A stretch of 64,000 nt of DNA. Source: Escherichia phage vB_EcoP_IMEP8. Each line of letters begins with the position of its first letter. Within the stretch, counting starts at the first letter, position 1. The notes beneath the pieces were generated by a model that saw nothing but the letters and a program-made list of their open reading frames with translations, had not been told where the DNA came from and did no database searches. The position numbers were made by a program, and so were the translations under genes. Positions 35,854-37,203 of the stretch are shown here, piece after piece. The stretch is from the sequence record NC_070993.1. One strand, written 5' to 3'.

Positions 35854-37203
35854 TTAGTTATTTGTTTCCATGTCAAAAGAAATTCCACGACCCGCTTCAT
35901 CGGCAAACCGAACTGTACGGGTTTGAGGCTGCAATACTTCAGGGTTATCAGCAACAAAACGATCAGCGAGACTGCGACTGACAGTCTCAGCTAATTCACC
36001 ATGAGAAGGGATATCAAGATCACCAACAGTGGAACTCTGAGCAGAGGCTTCATCAGTCCATACAGCCCTAACAGGTGCGTTGAAACTCTGACCAGAGAAC
36101 TGGTGACGGTTAACAGTCAAACCATTTGATTGATCATTAGAACGTCTAGACAACCACCGCTCAAATGAATCGCTAGTAACACCAAGAGCTTCTTCAAAAG
36201 ATGTTCTACGAGTAGAGCTTAGGTTTCGTGCCTCTTGTGCTCGACGTCTTGCAGGTACTGCAAACACCCCTTCAATTGCATTGTGTCGGTTAGGTTCATC
36301 TTCCCGACCAAGCAGATCACCACCTGTGTTAGTTGTTAAGTTTGTCAATCCTTCAGACCAATACGCATGAATCTGGCTAGAGCCGTGAAGATTTGACATA
36401 ACCTGAATCTCTTCATAAGGTATACCAAAGAATCGACTCATATCTCGGTTAACACAATACTGAGCACTTGTTGTATCTTCAAGAAGAGCAACCTGACCTA
36501 GTTCGTTGACCAGATGACTAACCGATTGAGGTGTGGGAAGATATCGAGTTTGGGCCATGTATTGATGTGCAACTGCTGGAGAGGAAAATCTCAACACTTG
36601 CGAGTTAGGCCACTTCTTGTGAACGTATCTGATTTCACGACTAGAAACAACCACCGGGCAAGGGGCGGTCATCGCCAAGTATCCATGAGAAGTCATGAAT
36701 AGGCTGTCAAGAGTCATCGCACCACGGCACATCATAGGGAAATTGTCCATTACTTCTTCAATAGAAGTAGGATAGTTAAACATGAATTGAATTCGGGTTC
36801 CGTTCCACTGGAACTCAATAATATCAGTGAAAGTTAATTGGGAACCTTCGGCATAAGTCTCATTCGTAGCTTCAGCCAGAAGGGAAGCATACTCGATACC
36901 TTGTGATTCAAGCCACTCTTTCACATTACTTTCAATTTCTCTTCCAAGATCTTGCCAACGATCAGTTGGGATGAAATAGTTTTGGGTTCTTGGTGCCTGT
37001 CCTCTGACAATAAAGATATCAATGTCATGTGGAGCTGTGTTATTAAGTACAGCATCACGAACAGCCCCACCAGTAATGATGGGACAAATACCGTCTGGAA
37101 TCAAGTTGTTGTCAATTAATTGTTCAATGAAGTGACGACCAACAGTGATATCAGGTTGTTGAGCAACCTTATCTTCAATTCGGTTAATCGGGATAACAAT
37201 CAT
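35854..37203 (-). CDS. Pol-beta-superfamily nucleotidyltransferase, CCA-adding enzyme / poly(A) polymerase head-domain-like
   Basis: ITGGAVRDAVL...HDIDIF matches GGxVRD...DxD head motif of class-II tRNA nucleotidyltransferases. Confidence 0.6.
   Translation of the reverse strand: MIVIPINRIEDKVAQQPDITVGRHFIEQLIDNNLIPDGICPIITGGAVRDAVLNNTAPHDIDIFIVRGQAPRTQNYFIPTDRWQDLGREIESNVKEWLESQGIEYASLLAEATNETYAEGSQLTFTDIIEFQWNGTRIQFMFNYPTSIEEVMDNFPMMCRGAMTLDSLFMTSHGYLAMTAPCPVVVSSREIRYVHKKWPNSQVLRFSSPAVAHQYMAQTRYLPTPQSVSHLVNELGQVALLEDTTSAQYCVNRDMSRFFGIPYEEIQVMSNLHGSSQIHAYWSEGLTNLTTNTGGDLLGREDEPNRHNAIEGVFAVPARRRAQEARNLSSTRRTSFEEALGVTSDSFERWLSRRSNDQSNGLTVNRHQFSGQSFNAPVRAVWTDEASAQSSTVGDLDIPSHGELAETVSRSLADRFVADNPEVLQPQTRTVRFADEAGRGISFDMETNN

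Follow-up and report, generated by a model that had tools for sequence, protein, structure and literature searches.

The only genetically characterized relative of the protein described here is Gad2, the second Gabija anti-defence protein, which is encoded by Bacillus phage SPbetaL7 and is predicted by AlphaFold to contain a nucleotidyltransferase domain (bioRxiv 10.1101/2023.05.01.538930). Deletion of Gad2 leaves SPbetaL7 sensitive to Gabija, a homologue from a Brevibacillus prophage protects phage SPbeta, and the SPbetaL7 protein is toxic on expression (bioRxiv 10.1101/2023.05.01.538930). A February 2026 review describes the mechanism of Gad2 as not elucidated (PMC12904381), Gad2 is not mentioned in Antine et al., and no link between Gordonclarkvirinae and Gabija was found in the papers searched. 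Other described relatives are the small 'nucleotidyltransferases' of Autographiviridae (PHROG 1614), such as Gp22 of fHe-Kpn01 and gp28 of PP47, which are encoded beside DNA polymerase and replication genes (PMC7693777); Gp22 is toxic in E. coli (PMC7291057). [quoted passage not shown]

The gene lies on the minus strand of a 64,000-nucleotide stretch of Escherichia phage vB_EcoP_IMEP8 (NC_070993.1), analysed as a whole and referred to as the window, and encodes a 449 aa product from an ATG at 37203 to a TAA at 35854-35856. Annotations of phiEco32 (phi32_73), Bas87, Bas89 and SU7 begin the gene at this ATG; a longer GTG start (37260) was rejected, as it overlaps the exonuclease gene and phiEco32 and its relatives start at the ATG. 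Positions 35000-38000 share 90-93% identity with Escherichia phages 172-1, NJ01, SU10, Paul and some 90 more, the matching phages being Kuravirus of the subfamily Gordonclarkvirinae, the phiEco32 group. The gene itself is 78-90% identical to its counterparts in 68 Kuravirus-like records, and the protein matches PHROG 12715 ('nucleotidyltransferase') from end to end (E = 8e-251). Mass spectrometry detected the SU10 orthologue in PEG-precipitated lysate along with other early proteins (PMC4281155), and dN/dS is 0.08-0.10 in the catalytic domain; that the gene is expressed and selectively constrained is firmly shown. The record of Escherichia phage vB-EcoP-XT32 (H36; P0043) annotates the orthologue as two ORFs, with a protein match of 358 aa (79% of the query); this is either a frameshift introduced by sequencing or a genuine truncation that parts the catalytic domain from some of the tail.

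Table 1. Features of the nucleotidyltransferase gene, its neighbours and the phage tRNA (positions in the window)
Feature	Position	Strand	Basis
Complete CDS (449 codons + TAA)	35854..37203	-	ORF list, translation; phiEco32 phi32_73 'nucleotidyltransferase' orthologue
Catalytic nucleotidyltransferase domain (aa 1-215), Gad2-like / PolyA_pol-head-like	36559..37203	-	Subfamily conservation, HMM search, AF2, dN/dS
Motif A ITGGAVRDAVLNNTAPHDIDIFIV (aa 43-66): NTP-binding GG helix and metal-binding D60/D62	37006..37077	-	Coordinates checked; alignments
Beta-strand FTDIIEFQW (aa 125-133) with E130, candidate third carboxylate	36805..36831	-	Strand predicted
FPMMCRG (aa 155-161), local form of family motif FDxGxC	36721..36741	-	Family alignment
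YVHKKWP (aa 193-199), local form of family motif HxxKxxxKYP	36607..36627	-	Invariant in Gordonclarkvirinae
Helical extension (aa 216-272), phiEco32-like clade only	36388..36558	-	AF2 model
Predicted disordered tail (aa 273-410)	35974..36387	-	pLDDT 24-38, composition
C-terminal element (aa 411-449), weakly predicted helix and beta-hairpin	35857..35973	-	pLDDT about 50
Upstream DnaQ-type 3'-5' exonuclease subunit	37205..37759	-	PF01612 matches in orthologues
Downstream dCTP deaminase	35311..35844	-	PF22769 in orthologous loci
Sigma-70-like site (TTGACC, 18 nt spacer, TATATT) inside the exonuclease 3' end, before the nucleotidyltransferase ATG	37216..37245	-	Consensus scan
tRNA-Arg(UCU)	53146-53222	-	ARAGORN; Rfam 59 bits

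In class II tRNA nucleotidyltransferases and poly(A) polymerases, motif B (RRD) recognizes the ribose and motif D (EDxxR) is the amino-acid template that selects the base. The original prediction had assigned the phage protein to this group from a GGAVRD...DIDIF motif in its N-terminal region, and the motif is indeed present as ITGGAVRD...HDIDIF at aa 43-66. Across 87 aligned homologues, whose mean column identity is only 10%, the sole invariant positions are G45, G46, A47, R49, D50, D60 and D62, and a profile built from 49 family members finds solved class II CCA-adding enzymes (E = 3.7e-8); the match to motif A is therefore beyond chance, and it aligns to motif A of the solved CCA-adding enzymes 6ibp, 1miv and 1ou5. 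Of the carboxylates, D60 and D62 are invariant in the 87 sequences; E130, the candidate for the third, is invariant in Gordonclarkvirinae and variable (E/D/N/S/T/Q) in the wider family, so that E130 can only be proposed as a catalytic residue. The fold is that of the class II head domain, the nearest solved structures being E. coli poly(A) polymerase (3aql, 10.3 in the solved-fold comparison), the B. stearothermophilus CCA enzyme (1miv, 9.1), the A. aeolicus A-adding enzyme (4wby, 8.7), the T. maritima CCA enzyme (3h37, 8.6) and the human CCA enzyme (1ou5, 8.0). A Pol-beta-type fold nearest to the class II enzymes, with intact NTP- and metal-binding residues, is firmly shown.

Beyond motif A and the head fold, the CCA-adding or poly(A)-polymerase-like identity does not hold. 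The PolyA_pol head-domain HMM (PF01743), a check that had been proposed together with this identity, aligns over positions 3-79 of its 126 at 18.8 bits (E = 0.0021), short of the gathering score of 23, and four orthologues reach 20.2-21.9 bits. Sequence alignments to solved CCA enzymes end past helix 1 and motif A, at about 44 residues. By sequence and secondary-structure register, motif B (RRD) is absent: its place (RRD-FTINA in class II) is taken by FPMMCRG within DNFPMMCRG, xxFDxGxC in the family, which lacks the Arg-Arg pair and in the phiEco32-like clade has Pro for the Asp. By the same register no conserved EDxxR is found in the subfamily or family alignments, and Pfam at E up to 10 finds no RNA-binding body or tail domain C-terminal to the neck. 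Most family members stop at about 200 aa, and TM-scores against solved class II structures are 0.37-0.44. The protein, with a domain of about 215 aa compared to about 400 aa for a whole class II enzyme with RRD, EDxxR, body and tail, is therefore related to the class II head but is not an accepted CCA-adding enzyme or PAP; that the elements giving CCA enzymes their tRNA binding and C/A selection are absent is firmly shown. An NCBIfam scan returned nothing, and a PADLOC scan covering known defence-system nucleotidyltransferases (CD-NTase, MenT/AbiEii and others) returned 0 families at E up to 10. MenT/AbiEii-type toxins belong to another family (DUF1814), with no PADLOC or Pfam match and no antitoxin partner at this locus.

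The subfamily alignment with phiEco32, Bas89, Bas87 and SU7 (28-35% identity outside Kuravirus) separates a conserved N-terminal block of about 215 aa from a variable, low-complexity C-terminal part, and identity of the catalytic domain across Gordonclarkvirinae is 28-42%. AlphaFold2 (AF2) folds residues 1-272 of the full-length protein; a domain-only model from 87 sequences has a mean pLDDT of 80.7, with values mostly of 80-96 in the catalytic domain, and a pTM of 0.79. The original prediction regarded the remaining 350 residues as divergent; they do not form a single divergent body, but comprise the rest of the conserved catalytic domain up to about residue 215, a helical extension (216-272) and a mostly disordered tail (273-449). 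For the extension, helices are modelled at 209-221, 247-259 and 263-271 (pLDDT 49-80), and homologues of about 200 aa are without it. Structure prediction of the C-terminal body, also suggested at the outset, gave no body fold, pLDDT being 24-38 over residues 273-410.

The tail is rich in S/R/A/G/E/T with almost no Lys, and carries a net charge of about -7; in relatives the tails are 100-270 aa long with pI from 5 to 11, and their length differs between clades. Its identity within Kuravirus is 50-97% per 20-residue block and its dN/dS is 0.27-0.43, which is purifying selection still, if weaker than that on the catalytic domain; the tail is thus real coding sequence. Compared with phiEco32 and an 88%-identical orthologue, dS is lower in the tail (0.12-0.34; 35854-36387) than in the catalytic domain (0.59-0.77; 36559-37203), which could reflect recombination mosaicism or extra constraint on the DNA or RNA. 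The C-terminal element (aa 411-449) is 73-82% identical among orthologues and has no family match in Pfam, a DUF5969 match at aa 403-448 (E = 0.13) being dismissed as noise.

Where the protein does find its relatives is in a family centred on the Gad2 domain. Searching 1.84 billion cluster representatives exhaustively with an HMM yielded 627 clusters with an E-value of 1e-3 or lower, and 55 with one of 1e-10 or lower; the clusters are defined at 50% identity, and 627 is a lower bound. The majority are stand-alone proteins of about 200 aa that share the motifs IIAGGAVRD, DIDIF, YQxI, FDxGxCxxYxDG and HxxKxxxKYP; K197 and P199 of the last are at least 90% conserved in a 49-sequence family alignment. 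All 49 sampled members match PHROG 1614 ('nucleotidyltransferase'), and 28 of the 49 match PolyA_pol weakly. Precomputed Pfam annotation of family proteins is PF26128, named 'Gad2', and is found on 29 of 44 orthologues; it is marked 'weak' on an 88%-identical orthologue (P0003) and 'faint' on P0250, is unmarked on the small P0108 and P0228, and was not returned by the Pfam scan run here. The Autographiviridae proteins are remote homologues (hhalign 94.7% for Gp22) that differ in being about 180 aa, tailless and closer in sequence to canonical PolyA_pol.

With the Gad2 sequence taken from the supplement of bioRxiv 10.1101/2023.05.01.538930, hhalign aligned the family profile to Gad2 over 112 columns, from motif A to FDFTVC, at 96% probability (E = 4.8e-9), and to a Gad2 profile at 97% (E = 8e-11); FPMMCRG falls on FDFTVCMGAF of Gad2. 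A Gordonclarkvirinae-only profile gives a moderate match (72.6%, E = 3e-5), and pairwise BLASTP of the phage protein with Gad2 matches motif A alone. Homology to the Gad2 nucleotidyltransferase domain is, at the level of profiles, firmly shown. The two proteins have in common the motif order IIAGGAxxx, DxDI(F/Y)F, xQ(L/M)I, FDx(G/T)xC and the K(Y/W) motif, whereas Gad2 has GGAITS where the phage protein has GGAVRD, and the folded C-terminal half of Gad2 (aa 200-400) has no counterpart here by BLASTP, a disordered tail standing in its stead. Gad2 is also an accessory gene of an anti-defence locus, while the phiEco32-clade gene is fixed in a replication block. Homologues of Gad2 proper were found in 199 phage records, mostly consisting of the N-domain alone, and since just 10 of the 199 cover at least 80% of Gad2, its C-domain is not universal in the family. 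Among 185,579 prokaryotic species, each represented by one genome, no cellular relatives were found by the FDxGxC pattern only, which divergent homologues could escape; as judged from these searches, the Gad2-like family is almost confined to phages. A tblastn search of phage records with one small homologue (P0103) returned a single record.

Enzymatic activity, acceptor and biological role are what we infer from these comparisons. On balance, the protein is probably an active, phage-specific nucleotidyltransferase of the Pol-beta type and Gad2-like family, which would transfer nucleotides to a 3'-OH without a template and serve host interference or counter-defence, and not canonical CCA synthesis. 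The catalytic domain of about 215 aa (PF26128) would have diverged from the class II tRNA-nucleotidyltransferase/poly(A)-polymerase head, keeping motif A and losing the ribose-sensing and base-selecting motifs along with the tRNA-binding body and tail, in whose place the phiEco32-clade protein has a short extension of helices and about 180 aa of predicted disordered tail. The acceptor could be a 3'-OH on host or phage RNA, on tRNA or at a DNA end, or something similar, the tail may act as a tether to a partner, and the role would be host interference or counter-defence, as genetically shown for Gad2 against Gabija. This role is preferred because the only genetically characterized relative is an anti-nuclease-defence factor, and because toxicity to cells, seen in two relatives, is what an enzyme acting on the ends of tRNA, RNA or DNA would be expected to cause; MenT toxins offer a precedent for toxicity of this kind (PMC10435456). 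Points against it are the moderate Gad2 match of the Gordonclarkvirinae-only profile, the pairwise BLASTP match restricted to motif A, GGAITS and a different C-terminal half in Gad2, the fixed place of this gene in the replication block, and the empty PADLOC and NCBIfam scans.

The genomic context was described correctly by the original prediction, the gene lying between those for the exonuclease and dCTP deaminase. A single nucleotide separates the TAA of the exonuclease subunit from the nucleotidyltransferase ATG, and in distant relatives there is a 4 nt overlap; as the start codon abuts the exonuclease-subunit stop, the protein would be co-produced with replication proteins. The order primase/helicase, exonuclease subunit, nucleotidyltransferase, dCTP deaminase is kept in Kuravirus, Suseptimavirus and unclassified relatives, to 33-38% identity. 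From the conserved order and the start/stop abutment it follows that this is a fixed gene of the replication block and not a variable accessory gene, and its linkage to replication genes is firmly shown to be conserved. The SU7 record has a promoter annotated at the place equivalent to the sigma-70-like site of Table 1; within 33000-41000, promoter- and terminator-like sites are no more frequent than in shuffled sequence. Three tandem small ORFs (34492-35107, minus strand; 69, 69 and 65 aa) are paralogues of 31-34% identity that share TRxxAR...KK...(S/T)I...G...V(Y/H)Y, with V(Y/H)Y at the end, and correspond to the 'hypothetical proteins' phi32_69-71. Upstream of the replication genes, from about 39763-40182 and beyond (minus strand; L001 1-3438), is a cluster of gamma-glutamyl cyclotransferase, amidoligase and glutamine amidotransferase genes (phi32_77-88) that is typical of phiEco32-like phages and is kept in relatives of 33-38% identity (L007).

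More distant members were examined in 36 IMG/VR loci retrieved with an 8-sequence alignment, of which 31 supplied 107 neighbour proteins for scanning. Across these 31 metagenomic loci the neighbours included DNA_pol_A (10), 5'-3' exonuclease (9), AAA_28 (7), FolE2 (4), ribonucleotide reductase (2) and DnaB (2). The gene is directly beside PolA in five loci (L028, L032, L034, L045, L051) and in fHe-Kpn01 (Gp22), and lies four genes downstream of it in L050. Among Gad2 homologues, that of Aeromonas phage 4L372D precedes a dCMP deaminase, and that of S. thermophilus phage SW22 is located between a recombination exonuclease and SSB. In one metagenomic locus (L025, IMGVR_UViG_3300038314_001308, 2550-5386) a small homologue sits between two family A polymerase ORFs of 403 and 298 aa, the polymerase gene seemingly split around it, an arrangement that recalls the phiEco32 layout of exonuclease, nucleotidyltransferase and distant polymerase.

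This context gives host interference its main rival, namely that the protein is a replisome accessory acting on DNA or primers, either as a terminal transferase on phage DNA 3' ends or as a maker or extender of RNA primers for the T7-type primase-helicase and family A polymerase. The four-gene synteny, the abutment or overlap with the exonuclease gene and the recurrent direct adjacency to PolA all argue for it, loss of the ribose-reading RRD would be compatible with the use of dNTPs, and the fixed position in the replication block suits a role in replication or nucleotide metabolism at least as well as one in counter-defence. We consider the replisome accessory rather unlikely. That the protein is a subunit of the replicative polymerase was rejected, as phiEco32 has a separate family A polymerase (phi32_53).

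A further reading is that of a genuine tRNA 3'-end enzyme, for CCA addition or repair or as a poly(A) polymerase, that mends or tails RNA 3' ends damaged by host nucleases. The window was originally thought to hold no tRNA genes; it encodes tRNA-Arg(UCU), and an equivalent tRNA is present in phiEco32. Its 3' CCA is encoded in the genome, and E. coli possesses its own Cca. In the Vequintavirinae 4MG (L053, 29-4595) and KB57 (L057, 318-5458), full-length Gad2 homologues (474 and 485 aa) immediately follow same-strand arrays of about 20 tRNA genes, which together with the canonical motif A and the nearest solved folds speaks for such an enzyme; however, CCA is encoded in 35 of the 39 tRNAs of those arrays, and a need of the phage tRNA for CCA addition was rejected because CCA is encoded, for these arrays as for the tRNA here. 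In the 4MG homologue about 100 aa are inserted after motif A, ahead of the remaining domain. In phage CBB an HD-domain protein is encoded two genes upstream of a homologue and RNA ligase 1 four genes downstream of it, which likewise speaks for this reading. Against this stand the sub-threshold PolyA_pol score, the missing RRD and EDxxR, the low TM-scores and the want of a body or tail domain, the C-terminus being disordered and acidic to neutral, not basic. A tRNA 3'-end enzyme is accordingly unlikely, and of the hypotheses that involve a nucleic acid, canonical CCA repair has the least support.

Nucleotidylylation of a protein or small molecule, or synthesis of a nucleotide-derived signal or decoy, was also considered, but folds of this kind score below the class II RNA enzymes and neither PADLOC nor Pfam gave a match to CD-NTase, ANT or Fic-type families, so that this is judged quite improbable. 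A catalytically dead scaffold kept for its tail or for protein binding, to which the variable E130 and the long disordered tail might point, is very hard to reconcile with motif A residues that are all invariant across very divergent homologues and with the strong purifying selection on the domain.

The preferred reading of host interference may be joined to the replication context by a more specific and quite tentative proposal, which we think unlikely to be right as it stands: Gad2-like enzymes would mark nucleic-acid 3' ends and so blind end-sensing nucleases of the OLD/Toprim type, such as Gabija, and in phiEco32-like phages this activity would have become fixed in the replisome through the disordered tether. 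The marked ends might be those of phage DNA or replication intermediates, or of host tRNA or RNA. Recruitment of end-marking to the replisome would explain why the gene keeps its place beside the exonuclease subunit and why family A polymerases recur as its direct neighbours.

The Gad2 catalytic domain thus defines a large and nearly phage-confined family of at least 627 clusters at 50% identity, which takes in a fixed gene of every phiEco32-like phage examined as well as the small proteins annotated as 'tRNA nucleotidyltransferases' in T7-like phages. The question of its function is directly testable, since Kuraviruses are amenable to manipulation, with E. coli as their host, and only one ORF is involved. 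Identification of the substrate of one member would probably explain the whole family, and would also correct the widespread annotation as 'class II CCA-adding enzyme', which is unlikely to be right because the defining motifs are missing.
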